Made by a program: the position numbers and the translations under genes
In this document: positions 12,115 through 33,822 of the stretch, one piece after another
How positions within the stretch are numbered: the stretch's first letter is position 1
Layout of the letters: every line of letters begins with the position of its first letter
The notes under the pieces: generated by a model
The model's database searches: none
Told to the model about the DNA's origin: nothing
What the model saw: the letters and a program-made list of their open reading frames with translations, nothing else
From: an uncultured bacterium
Lineage (GTDB): Bacteria; UBA8481
Length of the DNA stretch: 64,000 bases
Direction: 5' to 3'
NCBI GenBank assembly: GCA_964499705.1
Contig: CAZCME010000004.1
Coordinates: forward strand, 186,001 to 250,000

Positions 12115-12554
12115 ACCACGAAATGCACGAAATACACGAAATTAAAATCAAATGATGATTCGCTCGATATCCACTTTGGGATAGTGGCCGAAATTCACGA
12201 GTAAACCCAGACGTAATCCGGAAGCTCTCAGATAATTCATAATTTGCGCTCGGTGGTCGTGAAGCAATTCTCTTACAGCCTTTAGTTCGACTATAATTTG
12301 ACCATAACAGATCAGGTCGGGAACATACTTTTGAAGCAACAGTTCACCTTTATATGTAAGATTTAGTTCGCCTTTCGCCTGAAATGGTATGGAGCGCGCA
12401 AGAAGCTCCATTTCCATGCATACTTGATAGACCGCTTCAAGAAACCCGCATCCCATTTCCTTATAGACCTCAAATATGGCTCCTTGAACGGCATAACTTT
12501 CTTCTCTTAGAAATATTTTCTCTTTTTTTTCGTGTATTTCGTGTGTTTCGTGGT
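12115..12554. mobile_element. Putative single-gene cassette bounded by 27-bp inverted repeats around a GxxExxY nuclease gene
   Basis: Left arm 12115-12141 ACCACGAAATGCACGAAATACACGAAA; right arm 12528-12554 is its reverse complement at 25/27; AT-rich insert splitting moxR and DUF58. Confidence 0.6.
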
Positions 12555-12558
12555 TCAT
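12148..12558 (-). CDS. GxxExxY protein (PD-(D/E)XK nuclease fold)
   Basis: MGCGFLEAVY, PDLIC..IIVELKA, QIMNYL..GLLVNFG. Confidence 0.92.
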   Translation of the reverse strand: MNHETHEIHEKKEKIFLREESYAVQGAIFEVYKEMGCGFLEAVYQVCMEMELLARSIPFQAKGELNLTYKGELLLQKYVPDLICYGQIIVELKAVRELLHDHRAQIMNYLRASGLRLGLLVNFGHYPKVDIERIII

Positions 12559-29845: not shown

Positions 29846-31042
29846 ATGGCTATGGGAAGACGACGCTCGATGAGCGTCAAGACGGGGATGATCCTGGCGA
29901 TGGCGGGGTTGATGCTGGCGGGATACAGGATGCCGGCGGGAGCGAGCGGCGACGAGCGGGGTTTCGAGCTCGGCAATGCCCGGATCTTCGGATACGGGGA
30001 TCTCCACTACAACAGCCCGCGCGGCACGGATTTTCCCGACCGGCGCCAGGCCGACCTCGCTGACGCTCACCGCTTCGTCATCGGAGTCAGCTACAACTGG
30101 ACGGAACGTCTCTCGCTCCACGCGGAAGTCGACTTCGAGCACGCCGCCAACGCGGCGGACCTGGAGTTCGAGCTCGGGCACATCGACTACAGGCACTCCG
30201 ACGCCCTCGGCTTCCGGGCCGGCGTCGTTCTCATGCCGGTCGGATCCTTGAACGAGGTTCACGAGCCGACAACGTATTATTCCGTAGAGCGCCCGCAGAT
30301 CGACAACTTCATCATCCCTTCCACATGGCAGGAACTTGGCGCAGGCTTCTTCGGCACGATCTCCGCGCCCTTCCCGATCCGCTACCGTACCTATGCCGTC
30401 TCCAATCTCTCCGCAGCCGGCTTCAGCGCCGACCAGGGGATCCGCGGAGGACGGGGCAAGCTGAAATCCCAGAACACATCCGGAGCCGCCTGGGTCGGAC
30501 GGGTTGAAATCGAGCCGCTGCTCGGATTGACGCTCGGCACGTCCGCCTACTACGGAACCGCAAGCGTCTTCGGCACGGCCAACGGCGTCACGAACGTCGC
30601 CCGGCTCTCGTCCGTCGGCGTCAATCTCTGGACCGGAGAAGTGAAATACATCAAGGGTCCGTACGAGCTCCAGGGACGCTACGCCGTCCTCAATATCGGC
30701 GACGCCGTGGCCGTCTCCGCGAACAACACCGGCAACGATCCCGTCGCCGAACGCTCCACGGGCTGGCTCGGGGAGGCCGCCGTGCATACGGGACAATGGC
30801 TCTTCGCCGACGACAGCGACCTCGATCTCGTCCTCTTCGGCCGCTACCAGGAGATCGACACGCAGGAACGCGTGTCGGCGGGAACGACGAAAAATCTCGC
30901 GTTCGACCGGAACATCACGACTTGGGGACTGGCCTTCTTTCCGCATCGCGATGTCGCCCTGAAGGCGGATGTGGAACACTGGGAGCTCTCGACCGGACAG
31001 TCCGACGAACGGTATAATCTGGGACTGGCTTTCATATATTGA
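29846..31042 (+). CDS. Outer-membrane beta-barrel porin (OprO/P-like)
   Basis: Signal peptide; GYGDLHY, HRFV, EVDFEH, PVG.LNEVHEP...VERP; terminal aromatic residue; ATG at 29846 behind AAGGAG. Confidence 0.8.
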   Translation: MAMGRRRSMSVKTGMILAMAGLMLAGYRMPAGASGDERGFELGNARIFGYGDLHYNSPRGTDFPDRRQADLADAHRFVIGVSYNWTERLSLHAEVDFEHAANAADLEFELGHIDYRHSDALGFRAGVVLMPVGSLNEVHEPTTYYSVERPQIDNFIIPSTWQELGAGFFGTISAPFPIRYRTYAVSNLSAAGFSADQGIRGGRGKLKSQNTSGAAWVGRVEIEPLLGLTLGTSAYYGTASVFGTANGVTNVARLSSVGVNLWTGEVKYIKGPYELQGRYAVLNIGDAVAVSANNTGNDPVAERSTGWLGEAAVHTGQWLFADDSDLDLVLFGRYQEIDTQERVSAGTTKNLAFDRNITTWGLAFFPHRDVALKADVEHWELSTGQSDERYNLGLAFIY

Positions 31043-31608
31043 TCATATTGATTCCATCGCTTCGCCGCGCCGCAGGATGCTCGCTTCTCCTGCTGAGCGC
31101 GATCGCGGGCGCGTCAGGCGCCCGCGAGGGCGATCCGCGCGTCCTCATGTCGCGCGAGGAAGCCTTCAAGGTCATCCTGCCGGGCGCGGACAGGGTTGTC
31201 TCCTCGACGCGCAGGCTCACGACCGAAGCGCGCGCGCGCGTCGAGAAAAAATCCGGTCGCCGCATGGCCGCCGACACGGTCACGCTCTGGGCGGGACTGA
31301 AATACGGCGACACGATCGGTTACGCGTTCATCCTCGATGAGATCGGCCTTCATCACTCCATCACCTTCGGTGTCGGCGTAAAGCCGGACGGGCGGCTGGT
31401 CGATTGCGTCGTCATGGTCTTTCGGGAGTCGAAGGGCAGCGAGATCAAGGACATCCGTTTTCGGCGCCAGTTCCACGGCAAGACTTTATCCGATCCGATC
31501 CGGCTGCATCGGGATATCGTCCACGTCACGGGCGCGACGTATTCCTCCCGGGCCGCCGCCGACGCCGTCCGGAAGGCGCTTTCGCTTCTCGCGGAAGTGA
31601 AGCCGTGA
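31039..31608 (+). CDS. Exported FMN-binding protein (ApbE substrate)
   Basis: Signal peptide; FRESKGSEI, QFHGK, DIVHVTGATYSS with the [S/T]GA[S/T] flavinylation motif. Confidence 0.88.
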   Translation: MIILIPSLRRAAGCSLLLLSAIAGASGAREGDPRVLMSREEAFKVILPGADRVVSSTRRLTTEARARVEKKSGRRMAADTVTLWAGLKYGDTIGYAFILDEIGLHHSITFGVGVKPDGRLVDCVVMVFRESKGSEIKDIRFRRQFHGKTLSDPIRLHRDIVHVTGATYSSRAAADAVRKALSLLAEVKP

Positions 31609-32135
31609 CCGCGATGATGAAGAAAGCGACGTTCATCAACATGTCGCGTCCGCATAAGGCGGCGCTCACGGGTTTTCTTCTTCTTGCGCTTCTTCACCTC
31701 TTCGTCGTCTCCGCCGGCATGGCCCTGACACGCTCCGGCACCTCAGCGCAGTCGATTCGCGAGCACTACGCCGGAAACGATGCGGACGAGACGGTCCCGA
31801 TCGAGAATCTCAGGGCGGCCAAGACCGTCGACGAGATCCTGGAGATCACACACTTCCACATGGCCGTCATGCCGATCTTCACGTTTCTCCTCTGCCATCT
31901 TCTCGCCATGGCCGCCACCATGGGCGTACGATCGAAGATCGGAATCATCATCGCCGCCTACCTCTCGATCGCCCTGGAGATGTCGGTTCCATGGTTCGGT
32001 CTCTTCGCGCCTTCGCTCACTGTACTGAGACTCGCTTCGCGGGCGGGAATGGTCGTCACGAATCTCATCTCGATCTGCGTCCCGATGTACGAAATGTGGA
32101 TCTGGAAGACGGGCTCCGAGAGAACTCATCATTGA
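31605..32135 (+). CDS. Hypothetical integral membrane protein (His-containing TMs)
   Basis: GTG at 31605 overlaps upstream TGA; about 4 TMs; EITHFHM..CHL. Confidence 0.75.
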   Translation: MTAMMKKATFINMSRPHKAALTGFLLLALLHLFVVSAGMALTRSGTSAQSIREHYAGNDADETVPIENLRAAKTVDEILEITHFHMAVMPIFTFLLCHLLAMAATMGVRSKIGIIIAAYLSIALEMSVPWFGLFAPSLTVLRLASRAGMVVTNLISICVPMYEMWIWKTGSERTHH

Positions 32136-33106
32136 ATTCATCCTCTTTCAACCACGAACCACACGAACGGAAATATATTTTTTCATTTTTCGTGTGGTTA
32201 GTGTGGTTCGTGGTTACTGTTTTATTGATATCGGCTTGCTCGTCTGCGCTTCCGCCTGAATCCCCTATGGAAGAGAGCCGGTTTCTCATGGGAACCATGG
32301 CACATATCGCGGCTTATGGAGCATTCCGCGAGGACCTGGCGGCGGCATACTAGATCCTGAAGGCGCATGATGCCCAGCTTCATATCGACGCGGACTCCGG
32401 TCCGCTGCGCATCGATGCGGAATCCATCGCCGACGAATATCGCGCGAAGACGGGGGGAGCCTTCGATCCTCGGATCGGAGGGCTGACCCGCCTCTGGGGA
32501 TTTCACGGCGACTCGCCCCGCATCCCGTCCCGGGCCGAGATCGATGCGGAGAGAAACTCCACGGATCATGAACTCGATTTCGGCGGGATCGGCAAGGGGA
32601 TGGCGGCGGAACGCGCCGGGATGGAACTTATCCGGCGGGGTGTGCGGAGCGCCCTTATCAACCTGGGAGGGAACATCCAGTCGGTTGGCGCGCCGCCGGA
32701 CGGACAGTACTGGACGATCGCAGTCGTTCATCCCCGGAAGACGGATGAGGCTGTCGCCTTCCTCCTGCTGCCTCCGGGACATGCCGTGGCGACATCCGGC
32801 GATTACGAGCGCTTCCTCTTCGATGCTGATGGAAAACGTTTTCACCACATTCTCGATCCTTTGACGGGTTATCCGGCGGAACGCTCGGATACGGATGCGA
32901 AAATCGTCTCGGTCACGATCCAATCTCCTTCCGCAACGGCCGCGGATGCCTGGTCGACAGGAGCCTTTGTCCTCGGATGGCCGGAAGGATTTAGCCGCGT
33001 GGAGGAAGAACCGGATCTCGAAGGTCTCTTCGTCCTGGAACATGAGGATGGACGGATCGAACTACGGAAAACATCCGGGATGAGAATCGAGGCGAAGACG
33101 CGATGA
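32132..33106 (+). pseudogene. apbE: FAD:protein FMN transferase lipoprotein with one in-frame TAG at 32351-32353
   Basis: TTG start overlapping upstream TGA; lipobox LISAC; FLMGT, GGAFDP, DFGGIGKG, NLGGN, ATSGDYER, HHILDPLTG, ADAWST all in one frame across the TAG. Confidence 0.85.
32150..32215. repeat. Gene-less inverted-repeat element of the 9-bp-unit (CACGAA) family
   Basis: AACCACGAACCACACGAAC ... TTTCGTGTGGTTAGTGTGGTTCGTGGTT; same units as the GxxExxY flanks. Confidence 0.8.
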
Positions 33107-33822
33107 TGATACGGCCGCGGAATATTCTCCCTGTCATCGCCATCCTGAGCGCGGCGATCACCGGAAATCCCGTCATCATGTCTCTGACGGCTCTCGCGCT
33201 CTTTCCACTCCGCGCGCGCTCCTGCCACGGGCTTCTGTTCGTCGCCGGCGGCGCTCTCGTCATGGCCTGTCTCGCCGGTCTCTCATCGGCGTCGATCTTC
33301 TTTCTTCGCAGTTCTCTCCTGGCGCTGGCCGCCTCCTTCGTATCGCTCCGCTCCCGTCTGCTCGAAGGCATCATCGCCGACATGCACGCGATCCGGCGGG
33401 AGATGAAGTCCAGGACCGTGACGATGAACATGGAATGGATCCGACGGCAATTTCCGATATTACCGGCCCGGCGCGCGCATCCTCTCGCGGAGACGTTCGT
33501 CTGGTCGATCCTCCTCATTCCCCTGCTGGCCGCGTTCGCTCCATCGCATCCACTTTCCGCTCCCGAAGAATTCATCCTGGAATCGCCCGACGGCACAAGG
33601 ATACTGACCGAAGGACGGCATGAGCTCGGTCGCTCCGGAGGCCGGATCACCGTCGACATTTCCCGGACGGGCGCGCGCGTCCTTGCCGCCGAATGCCCGC
33701 AGCAAAGGTGTCTGCATCAAGGCTCCATCGAAGCCGGATCCGGCCGATCCATCATCTGCATGCCGAACAGGTTCGTCATCCGATCGCGCAGAAAGGCAAA
33801 GGTGGACGGATGGACGGGCTGA
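33103..33822 (+). CDS. Membrane protein fused to NusG domain II (DUF1312-like)
   Basis: C-terminal ECPQQRCLHQG.I...SIICMPNR three-Cys motif; N-terminal TMs. Confidence 0.75.
   Translation: MMIRPRNILPVIAILSAAITGNPVIMSLTALALFPLRARSCHGLLFVAGGALVMACLAGLSSASIFFLRSSLLALAASFVSLRSRLLEGIIADMHAIRREMKSRTVTMNMEWIRRQFPILPARRAHPLAETFVWSILLIPLLAAFAPSHPLSAPEEFILESPDGTRILTEGRHELGRSGGRITVDISRTGARVLAAECPQQRCLHQGSIEAGSGRSIICMPNRFVIRSRRKAKVDGWTG

Follow-up and report, generated by a model that had tools for sequence, protein, structure and literature searches.

In the 64-kb window (the whole stretch of DNA that was analysed), the gene for an ApbE-type FAD:protein FMN transferase lies downstream of a gene for its likely substrate, and a palindromic repeat occupies its 5′ end. 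A second locus of the window, a GxxExxY gene, is flanked by related repeats. The features are as follows.

12148-12558, − strand: GxxExxY (PDDEXK_3) gene (Pfam PF13366, E = 5.8e-40)
31039-31608, + strand: FMN_bind protein, likely ApbE substrate (Pfam PF04205, E = 6.7e-8)
31614-32135, + strand: membrane-protein gene without an assigned Pfam family, ending in a stop that overlaps the TTG at 32132
32132-32134, + strand: candidate TTG start of apbE, overlapping the upstream TGA (32133-32135) as TTGA
32150-32168, + strand: left palindrome arm with two CACGAA units, encoding N7-H-E-P-H-E12 and the first base of R13
32169-32188, + strand: AT-rich loop GGAAATATATTTTTTCATTT, encoding (R13)-K-Y-I-F-S-F19
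32189-32215, + strand: right arm, three units (TTCGTGTGG TTAGTGTGG TTCGTGGTT), encoding F20-V-W-L-V-W-F-V-V28
32192-32194, + strand: alternative GTG start within the right arm, yielding MWLVWFVVTVLLISAC, in which the Cys would be residue 16 and a charged n-region would be absent
32225-32239, + strand: putative lipobox L-I-S-A-C (Cys36), aligning with the lipobox Cys of the homologues P0038, P0010, P0009, P0023, P0028, P0008, and P0035
32240-32287, + strand: linker SSALPPESPMEESRFL from Cys36 to the MGT motif, including the alternative ATG 32267
32288-33106, + strand: ApbE domain, MGT motif to stop (Pfam PF02424, E = 4.1e-54, profile positions 59-266)
32351-32353, + strand: in-frame TAG of the assembled allele, 21 codons beyond the Met of the conserved MGT motif

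The palindrome comprises 66 nt, equivalent to 22 codons (residues 7-28), and is in frame with apbE. Its inverted-repeat arms at 32150-32168 (AACCACGAACCACACGAAC) and 32197-32215 are 19 nt long, 95% complementary, and separated by 28 nt. Because the right arm consists of three units and the left arm of two, an alternative pairing register exists (32153-32167 with 32189-203). The earlier note had described an inverted repeat at 32150-32215 made of the same CACGAA units as the flanks of the GxxExxY gene, which was confirmed by the arm pairing and by a search with the 18-mer AACCACGAACCACACGAA. Allowing up to three mismatches, this 18-mer matched three times in the window (0.06 expected; three matches reached in 0 of 100 shuffles), namely in the two apbE arms and in the cassette arm nearest the GxxExxY gene (12538-12555). 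The predicted RNA fold of 32146-32219 has an energy of −30.3 kcal/mol, shuffled versions averaging −14.0 (z −5.4; equaled by 0 of 200 shuffles), and the GC content of the palindrome is 0.41-0.42 versus about 0.6 in the surroundings. An Rfam search with E-values up to 1 gave chance-level matches only (a plant miRNA precursor on the hairpin, E 0.97; Chlorobi-1, E 0.29). No empty-site allele of the element was seen in four sequencing runs, in which no contig joined across the element, and no RNA run containing the apbE stretch was found.

Reading frame and putative leader of ApbE

Translation from TTG 32132 yields MNSSSF-NHEPHE-RKYIFSF-FVWLVWFVV-TVLLISAC with Cys36 encoded at 32237-32239, in agreement with the earlier reading of NHEPHER and FVWLVWFVV in frame before the lipobox LISAC. 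Owing to the complementarity of the arms, the first arm is polar (NHEPHE) and the second hydrophobic (FVWLVWFVV) when both are read in one frame. The right-arm residues F20-V28 most likely represent the hydrophobic core of a putative ApbE signal peptide. The SPase II lipobox follows the consensus [LVI][ASTVI][GAS]C, which is matched by I33-S34-A35-C36, and the uncharged stretch Y15-L32 (YIFSFFVWLVWFVVTVLL) directly before it has the length of an h-region (approximately 7-22 residues). Only seven codons (TVLLISA) separate the right arm from Cys36; therefore, any leader must contain arm-encoded residues, whatever start is used.

TTG 32132 is the only in-frame ATG, GTG, or TTG between the stop of the upstream gene and the palindrome. 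It is a weak start without a clear Shine-Dalgarno sequence, and the hairpin of −30 kcal/mol begins 18 nt downstream. The PROSITE lipoprotein rule PS51257 places the Cys at 15-35 from the start and asks for an early K or R. A leader beginning at TTG 32132 would be atypical: its Cys is at 36, no K or R is present in residues 1-7, and R13 and K14 are accompanied by E9 and E12. The proposal that the empty element mimics both an n-region and an h-region is partly supported, by the polar left and the hydrophobic right arm; its n-region part depends on TTG 32132.

Seven distant lipoprotein ApbEs have a lipobox and linker that are homologous to, and align with, Cys36 and the 16 residues after it (e.g., LLLLLSACSPSPPEAHESRFMMGT in P0038); the linker is similar to SPSPPEAHESRFM in P0038 and to SPATEDVRESRFM in P0010. 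In a crude regular-expression count, 30 of 120 ApbE homologues carry a Cys resembling that of a lipobox, which precedes MGT by a median of 14.5 residues, and 15 start within three residues of MGT. The ApbE of a genome of the same family (G002) has a classical hydrophobic leader, MFSKRLTRILPIVLLLVVLAAVLTS. No close orthologue was found among the five genomes of the phylum in the set (best match 41-42% identical), and the loci obtained in a metagenome scan with an over-general pattern did not exceed 41% identity.

On the basis of these sequence features, we consider it probable that a hairpin devoid of cargo, lying within the 5′-terminal part of apbE in its frame and upstream of an ancestral lipobox, forms the core of an export leader. 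The 66-bp palindrome is a cargo-less copy from a mobile family of hairpin repeats with arms of tandem 8-9-bp CACGAA units. Its 9-bp units keep the frame, and the order of the arms, polar then hydrophobic, corresponds to the n-region and h-region of a Sec/lipoprotein signal peptide. In an intact allele with GAG at 32351, ApbE would be exported or anchored in the membrane via a leader with the right arm and TVLL as its core. The leader would then be cleaved, ApbE would be lipidated at Cys36, and the exported enzyme could flavinylate the FMN-binding protein of its operon, which carries its own N-terminal signal peptide (leader MIILIPSLRRAAGCSLLLLSAIAGASGA, judged by eye). We infer the start codon used and the working of the leader, as well as the entry of the hairpin into a pre-existing signal-peptide region after the genus had split from its sequenced relatives. 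The 18-mer (up to one mismatch) occurs 37 times in this genome (G000) and is absent from the four other genomes of the phylum (reversed-pattern control 0), suggesting that the hairpin is younger than the lipobox.

It is rather unlikely that the hairpin is instead an intergenic REP- or MITE-like repeat, with apbE starting at ATG 32267 (MEESRFLMGT) or ATG 32288 (MGT) and the lipobox being the relic of a leader destroyed by the insertion. In this position between the membrane-protein gene and apbE, the hairpin may serve as an RNA stabilizer, a partial terminator, or a translational brake. Such an arrangement is consistent with the six closest homologues (P0001-P0006, 48-72% identity), for all of which the annotated protein begins at MGT (in one case at MMGT) and has no leader. 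The lipobox and linker are still alignable to the distant lipoprotein ApbEs, which would not be expected for a decaying non-coding relic, and no stop interrupts the frame from the stop of the upstream gene through the palindrome. The codon usage of 32132-32239 is non-native (log-odds trained on this genome −0.16, compared to +0.16 for the ApbE body and about −0.4 for wrong frames). Furthermore, a U-rich ACUGUUUUAUUG follows the stem, but no terminator or promoter was called in a consensus scan of 31000-33200, which is weak evidence because the loop of the palindrome exceeds the limit of the scan. Elsewhere in the genome, about 10 loci, classed by eye, have a hairpin of this kind untranslated, 3-12 codons upstream of a start codon. 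On the other hand, an ApbE without a leader could not reach its exported FMN_bind substrate.

The in-frame TAG, which had not been mentioned in the earlier note, breaks the assembled open reading frame at 32351. That apbE is dead or dying in the sequenced strain, with the open frame through the repeat as a leftover and the leader irrelevant, is improbable in our view. In favor of this reading, the unitigs of the runs X2 and X3 end within 30 nt of 32351, which fits two co-occurring alleles or low coverage. In contrast, GAG (Glu) and an identical leader are present in run X1 on a contig of 732 nt, T>G at 32351 being the sole difference over 31900-32532, although with a depth of 4.7 this may be an error. 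The rest of the gene shows normal codon usage and, at 72% identity to P0001, contains no breaks besides the TAG. The genome, 96% complete, has no other ApbE match, and apbE adjoins the gene of its likely substrate.

The CACGAA hairpin family

The genome contains 85 CACGAA arms, which form 32 inverted pairs. The family is defined here by inverted arms, each with at least two tandem 8-9-nt units and a CACGAA core starting AAC-CACGAA, and by many copies in the genome; the apbE element has all of these features. The 27-nt right arm has an identical copy at C1:466782-466808. The cargo of the hairpins is nothing, a GxxExxY gene, or an insertion sequence (IS). The identical 18-mer was also found across Lentisphaeria, Verrucomicrobiota, Planctomycetes, spirochaetes, Acidobacteriota, Caulobacterales, and others, indicating a wide spread of the family among phyla. 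Literature searches on the names of GxxExxY and related gene families did not bring it up.

The apbE arms are most closely related to subterminal arrays in an IS4/IS5-type DDE-transposase element at C8:146449-147906 and in its deletion-derivative MITEs in the same genome. These share identical AACCACGAACCACACGAA arrays, including the CACTAA variant, with the apbE element and provide the best matches of its right arm. Approximately 14 nt beside the right arm resemble a MITE of this IS, which is suggestive only. CAGAAGTTCCCCA, the terminal inverted repeat at the outer ends of both the IS and the MITEs, was not detected beside the apbE element, where 392-669 of 1000 shuffles scored as well. With its flanks at shuffle level, the element was not assigned to the MITEs of this IS that have CAGAAGTTCCCCA ends.

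The GxxExxY gene of the window has inverted CACGAA arms at 12117-12140 and at 12529-12552, the latter overlapping its 5′ end. The right half of the apbE element aligns over 56 nt with this cassette end, including the AT-rich GAAATAT..TTTT, and the alignment runs past the arm to include the initial codons of the GxxExxY ORF. It scores 50, while shuffled sequences average 16.3 (sd 2.7, z 12.4). The resemblance of the AT-rich spacer to the neighborhood of the cassette arm holds for the spacer alone, whose score was reached by 10 of 2000 shuffles. Despite these similarities, the origin proposed in the earlier note, a GxxExxY cassette that lost its gene through internal deletion, is improbable, since only one of the 32 inverted pairs carries such a gene, the arm subtypes differ (CACGAACCA in the apbE element versus CACGAAATA/ACA in the cassette), the right arm matches the IS and MITE ends better (scores 55-62 versus 50), AAATATTTT-like loops are common in cargo-less hairpins of other subtypes, and the second of the two GxxExxY genes in the genome (tblastn) has different, unrelated 9-nt units. 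No PDDEXK_3 ORF lies between the apbE arms, where the loop has 20-28 nt.

Hairpin-encoded leaders of other exported proteins

Sorting 29 arm/frame rows by eye gave seven leaders, about 10 5′-untranslated regions, and about 12 spurious or unclear cases. In at least seven further exported-looking genes of the genome, no start codon is present between the hairpin arm and the mature domain, so that the repeat appears to be read as part of the leader. They encode a multihaem cytochrome c (Cytochrome_C7, E = 7e-13), a cupredoxin-like protein and a CBM11-like lipoprotein (both with weak Pfam matches), and four PorV/UPF0164-like proteins (weak or no Pfam matches), which are paralogues and therefore do not count as independent cases. 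At C1:69758-71212, both arms are translated as in apbE (NHKDTKTRRR ... RVFVSSW). In a PorV-like gene, the hairpin at C29:28860-28881 consists of 8-bp CACGAAGA units that are read as a charged and a hydrophobic half of a signal peptide; it belongs to the same superfamily as the apbE element but differs from it in arm subtype, locus, and host gene. The exaptation of repeats in leaders claimed in the earlier note thus has parallels in the same genome.

It is conceivable, albeit only as a tentative extension, that palindromes of tandem 8-9-bp units are not just tolerated passengers but ready-made signal-peptide modules and a cross-phylum source of new leaders. Their complementary arms would read polar then hydrophobic either way round and their unit length would keep the frame, so that a palindrome inserted at the start of a gene could provide a new leader or take the place of an old one. 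In this genome, this would have been repeated for ApbE, the multihaem cytochrome, the cupredoxin, the lipoprotein, and the four PorV-like barrels. In other phyla, inspection by eye of 80 loci with short 400-nt flanks and no gene models revealed no convincing case. The hairpins may also couple RNA-level control to export.

If the leader of ApbE works, the export of a conserved periplasmic enzyme hangs on selfish DNA that arrived after the divergence of the genus, which would illustrate how easily signal peptides are rebuilt from palindromic repeats. Gene callers probably cut such genes to the first internal ATG, and exported proteins of repeat-rich uncultured lineages may consequently be mis-annotated as cytoplasmic.

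Comparison with known repeat elements

REP/RAYT and TIRYT elements were considered as relatives, but the repeat does not lie at or beside Y1 (IS200-like) transposase genes. The genome has two Y1_Tnp genes (PF01797) on the contigs C13 and C17 (loci L243 and L244), and no CACGAANNNCACGAA array was found within 1.5 kb of either; a dependence on a Y1 transposase is therefore unsupported. Literature searches combining palindromic elements or MITEs with signal peptides brought up other families of repeats only.

The Rickettsia palindromic elements (RPEs), which Ogata et al. reportedly described in 2000, are inserted in frame in protein-coding genes and are said to reside in surface loops of mature proteins; to our knowledge, they have not been reported as export signals. 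Like the apbE element, they are palindromic selfish repeats tolerated in ORFs, where the frame is kept and permissive parts of the protein are occupied, but they differ in sequence and host lineage.

A close parallel to a repeat-derived leader is described for RU-2, the Yersinia palindromic sequence MITE, which contributes to the signal peptide predicted for YPO1552 (Delihas 2007, PMC2759123; review PMC2229807). According to these sources, RU-2 resembles the apbE element as a small, mainly intergenic palindromic repeat fused in frame to the 5′ end of a gene, with solely in-silico evidence in both cases. It differs as a 168-bp enterobacterial MITE of unrelated sequence with, as described there, an orphan ORF as host. 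The apbE case is most likely a new and unusually clear example of the known absorption of small repeats into proteins. In contrast to RU-2, the apbE element has arms of tandem 9-bp units, both of which may be read, and a conserved enzyme with an ancestral lipobox as its host, and at least eight exported proteins of a single genome, ApbE included, show the pattern.

The inverted repeat at the 5′ end of apbE

The window contains the only ApbE match of the genome, an FAD:protein FMN transferase (Pfam E 4.1e-54). Its gene is located downstream of a palindrome and belongs to an operon-like row:

31039–31608, FMN_bind protein with its own signal peptide
approximately 31614–32135, membrane protein
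32150–32215, inverted repeat (arms 32150–32168 and 32197–32215)
downstream of the repeat, apbE
following apbE, NusG_II protein, then Hpre_diP_synt_I-type membrane protein

An inverted repeat built of CACGAA units had been reported for this site in the earlier note, and this observation is confirmed beyond chance. The arms (19 nt) are 95% complementary; the left one comprises two CACGAA-core units and the right one three (TTCGTGTGG TTAGTGTGG TTCGTGGTT, 32189–32215). Allowing up to three mismatches, the 18-mer AACCACGAACCACACGAA has three matches in the window versus 0.06 expected, a number reached by none of 100 shuffles. These matches are both palindrome arms and the arm adjoining the start of the GxxExxY gene (12148–12558). 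As RNA, the palindrome is predicted to fold into a 15-bp outer and a 7-bp inner stem with a free energy of −30.3 kcal/mol, compared to −14.0 kcal/mol for shuffled sequences (z −5.4). The GC content falls to 0.41–0.42 at this site, the value for the whole genome being 60.9%. The 18-mer statistics, the folding energy, and the GC dip therefore identify the palindrome as real.

The CACGAA family and its relation to the GxxExxY cassette

With a loose definition of an arm (at least two CAC[G/A/T]AA units, at least one of them exact), the genome (4.67 Mb, 45 contigs) yields 85 arms, of which 21 are single and the others make up 32 inverted pairs. The 18-mer (up to one mismatch) occurs 37 times, its reversed-pattern control not at all. 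Nearly all arms open with AAC-CACGAA. Several subtypes occur, namely CACGAACCA and CACGAAATA/ACA (both 9-bp units), CACGAAGA (8-bp units), and CACGAATGGA. The pairs mostly span 50–290 bp without a gene. Longer pairs and their relatives are as follows (C, contigs of this genome):

12148–12558, GxxExxY gene flanked by a longer pair
C8:146449–147906, insertion sequence (IS); longer pair enclosing a 381-aa transposase (DDE_Tnp_1 E 8e-5, 22.9 bits vs. a cut-off of 23)
C24:17951–19170, broken copy of the C8 IS
e.g., C1:115908–116068, C1:345778–345899, C6:36527–36679, C9:24738–25020, at least six shorter copies resembling MITE deletion derivatives of the C8 IS

At its ends, the C8 IS combines an outer terminal repeat, CAGAAGTTCCCCA, with CACGAA arrays. 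A dependence of the REP/RAYT type is unsupported, as CACGAA-type arrays are missing within 1.5 kb of both Y1 transposase genes of the genome.

The exact 18-mer was found in many phyla (at least 132 stretches across the genomes scanned). The matches listed include Lentisphaeria, Verrucomicrobiota, Planctomycetes, Treponema and other spirochaetes, Acidobacteriota, Phenylobacterium, Asticcacaulis, Caulobacter, Chloroflexi, Clostridia, and Nitrospinota, with spacings of short hairpins as well as cargo-sized ones of about 400 nt. No copy, even with one mismatch allowed, is present in the four other genomes of the same phylum as the window (completeness 86–96%). From this distribution, the family appears to move horizontally and to have undergone a recent expansion in this genome. 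One Lentisphaeria MAG (loci L104–L182) carries dozens of copies joined with other tandem units (CACGGAC..., CACGCAGAT...), suggesting that hairpins built of such units form a larger class that spans phyla.

The product of the GxxExxY gene in the window matches PDDEXK_3 (Pfam E 5.8e-40). The repeat arm itself forms the first nine codons of this ORF (NHETHEIHE), and the ATG overlaps the stop codon of the neighboring MoxR-type ATPase gene (ATGA, 12555–12558, minus strand). The genome's only other GxxExxY gene (C8:30762–31115, 38% identity) has inverted arrays of another 9-nt unit, GGCAGGAT, on both sides. What seems to be conserved for GxxExxY is the layout, with inverted tandem 9-mers on either side of the gene, and not the unit sequence. 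No published account of tandem-unit inverted arms around GxxExxY genes was found among the papers listed for GxxExxY and five related family names.

A 56-nt alignment (score 50, z 12.4) matches the right half of the palindrome to the gene-proximal cassette end and takes in the AT-rich GAAATAT..TTTT stretch; when only the spacer was aligned, its score was reached by 10 of 2000 shuffles. The resemblance to the cassette is thus real, but the proposal of a GxxExxY repeat that lacks its cargo is unsupported as worded. The arm subtype differs, the right arm matches IS/MITE ends best (scores 55–62), and AAATATTTT-like loops are common in cargo-less hairpins of other subtypes. A 27-nt arm identical to the apbE right arm is present at C1:466782–466808, and the outer repeat of the C8 IS was not detected beside the apbE palindrome. 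Judged by these sequence comparisons, the apbE element is treated as a putative minimal hairpin of the CACGAACCA subtype and should not be named a GxxExxY repeat.

Translation start and proposed leader of ApbE

A TTG at 32132 overlaps the upstream TGA as TTGA. From this codon, the frame reads MNSSSF / NHEPHE / RKYIFSF / FVWLVWFVV / TVLLISAC / SSALPPESPMEESRFL / MGT..., with residues 7–28 supplied by the 66-nt (22-codon) palindrome. Cys36 aligns with the lipobox cysteine of lipoprotein ApbEs, and the linker resembles theirs (LLLLLSACSPSPPEAHESRFMMGT in homologue P0038, LLLFGCSPATEDVRESRFMMGT in P0010). With a crude regex, a lipobox-like cysteine was counted in 30 of 120 homologues; its median position is 14.5 residues ahead of MGT. 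The alignments argue that lipobox and linker are ancestral coding sequence, in which case the start must lie upstream of 32225. Candidate starts are TTG 32132 and GTG 32192, 32201, and 32210 within the right arm. With no more than seven codons between the right arm and Cys36, most of the hydrophobic core comes from the arm whichever start is used, and this part of the proposed signal peptide is robust, provided that ApbE is exported. The left arm as n-region is weaker; it depends on TTG as the start codon, and its positive residues, R13 and K14, originate from the arm–loop junction, not from the arm.

Export is supported by the exported FMN_bind protein, the likely substrate, and by the classical hydrophobic leader of an ApbE from a genome of the same family. 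Against a leader stand the six closest homologues (48–72% identity), which are called from MGT (one from MMGT), the 15 of 120 homologues beginning within three residues of MGT, and a codon log-odds value of −0.16 for 32132–32239 versus +0.16 for the ApbE body. Truncation of the MGT-start homologues by the gene caller is plausible, since the conserved Glu-Ser codons before MGT resemble a ribosome-binding site and an AT-rich repeat scores as non-coding. A palindrome-derived signal peptide of ApbE is considered moderately likely.

The assembled apbE contains an in-frame TAG (32351–32353). Public sequencing runs, among them X1–X3, were compared over 31900–32700. A contig of X1 (732 nt, depth 4.7) covering 31900–32532 differs solely by T>G at 32351, resulting in GAG (Glu). 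The unitigs of X2 and X3 end within 30 nt of this base, which fits two alleles or thin coverage. The palindrome is unchanged in the contigs of all three runs covering it, and no contig of the examined runs joins across it. Thus, the TAG represents either polymorphism or error, and there is probably an intact apbE allele with the same leader.

Putative hairpin-encoded leaders and known systems

Every arm in the genome was read outward, and frames were kept if they stayed open over 90 codons or more and had a coding score of 0.05 or higher. The resulting 29 rows, from which apbE is missing because the TAG shortens its open frame, were sorted by eye into seven genes, about 10 5′-UTR cases, and about 12 spurious or unclear cases (e.g., IS ends). 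In the seven genes, the stretch from the arm to the mature domain lacks a start codon:

C2:189736–190770, minus strand, multihaem cytochrome c (Cytochrome_C7 E 7e-13); arm FRVFRVFRG supplies the n-region
C5:27824–28291, minus strand, Cupredoxin_1 (E 1.3e-5, below cut-off); arm FVSLCLR, then lipobox FTSC
C1:466757–467506, plus strand, CBM_11 (E 2.9e-4, weak); arm identical to that of apbE, read RVVSVVRG, then lipobox LLSAC
C29:27319–28995, minus strand, PorV (E 1.7e-4, below cut-off); arm C29:28860–28881, FVSSCLC in the leader
C19:30240–31295, minus strand, PorV (E 7.7e-5, below cut-off); arm C19:31169–31190, FVSLCLC in the leader
C7:144396–145484, minus strand, no Pfam match; hairpin C7:145387–145467, arm CVFVSS in the leader
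C1:69758–71212, plus strand, UPF0164 (E 1.2e-4); hairpin C1:69776–69849 read whole, MTLFV-NHKDTKTRRR-TKKYYFVLL-RVFVSSW-LFAVA

The arrangement at C1:69758–71212 matches that of apbE. All read-through products look exported, and none is obviously a cytoplasmic enzyme. Four PorV/UPF0164-like outer-membrane proteins carry a CACGAAGA-type arm in each leader, in different frames; these barrel proteins are paralogues, and hence the seven genes are not seven independent cases.

In the 5′-UTR cases, the hairpin lies 3–12 codons upstream of the start codon. Many hairpins of the genome end at this distance, among them C3:349665, C22:18507, C3:361235, C22:14426, C16:20624, and C24:61947; the genes behind them look like housekeeping genes, judged by eye from N-terminal sequences. 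This position hints that the hairpins favor 5′ untranslated regions or act there.

Codons that are complementary to each other usually specify residues of opposite hydropathy. Within the family, CACGAA-rich arms are read as His, Glu, Thr, Asn, Lys, and Arg, and TTCGTG-rich arms as Phe, Val, Trp, Ser, Cys, and Leu. Because the palindrome looks alike on both strands, a gene entering it from either side would pass through the polar arm before the hydrophobic one, which is the order of a signal peptide, and the nine-bp units would keep the frame. The hairpin probably inserted into an existing apbE leader or took the place of part of it. Without the 66 nt, the frame reads MNSSSFTVLLISAC, a sequence that lacks charge and is not long enough to have functioned by itself, so part of the original sequence was probably lost. 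Tolerance of the insertion is probably explained by the hydrophobic core that this frame retains before the old lipobox; the outcome may be exaptation or no more than tolerance.

Palindromic elements of Rickettsia are the classic in-frame repeats. For Yersinia, an in silico study describes the 168-bp MITE RU-2 as part of the predicted signal peptide of YPO1552, and MITE–gene fusions were proposed as building blocks of exported proteins (Delihas, 2007; PMC2759123, PMC2229807). Like RU-2 in YPO1552, the apbE case is a palindromic repeat in a putative signal peptide, both described in silico. Going by these accounts, repeats absorbed into predicted signal peptides are already known, and the apbE hairpin of tandem units would add a new variation.
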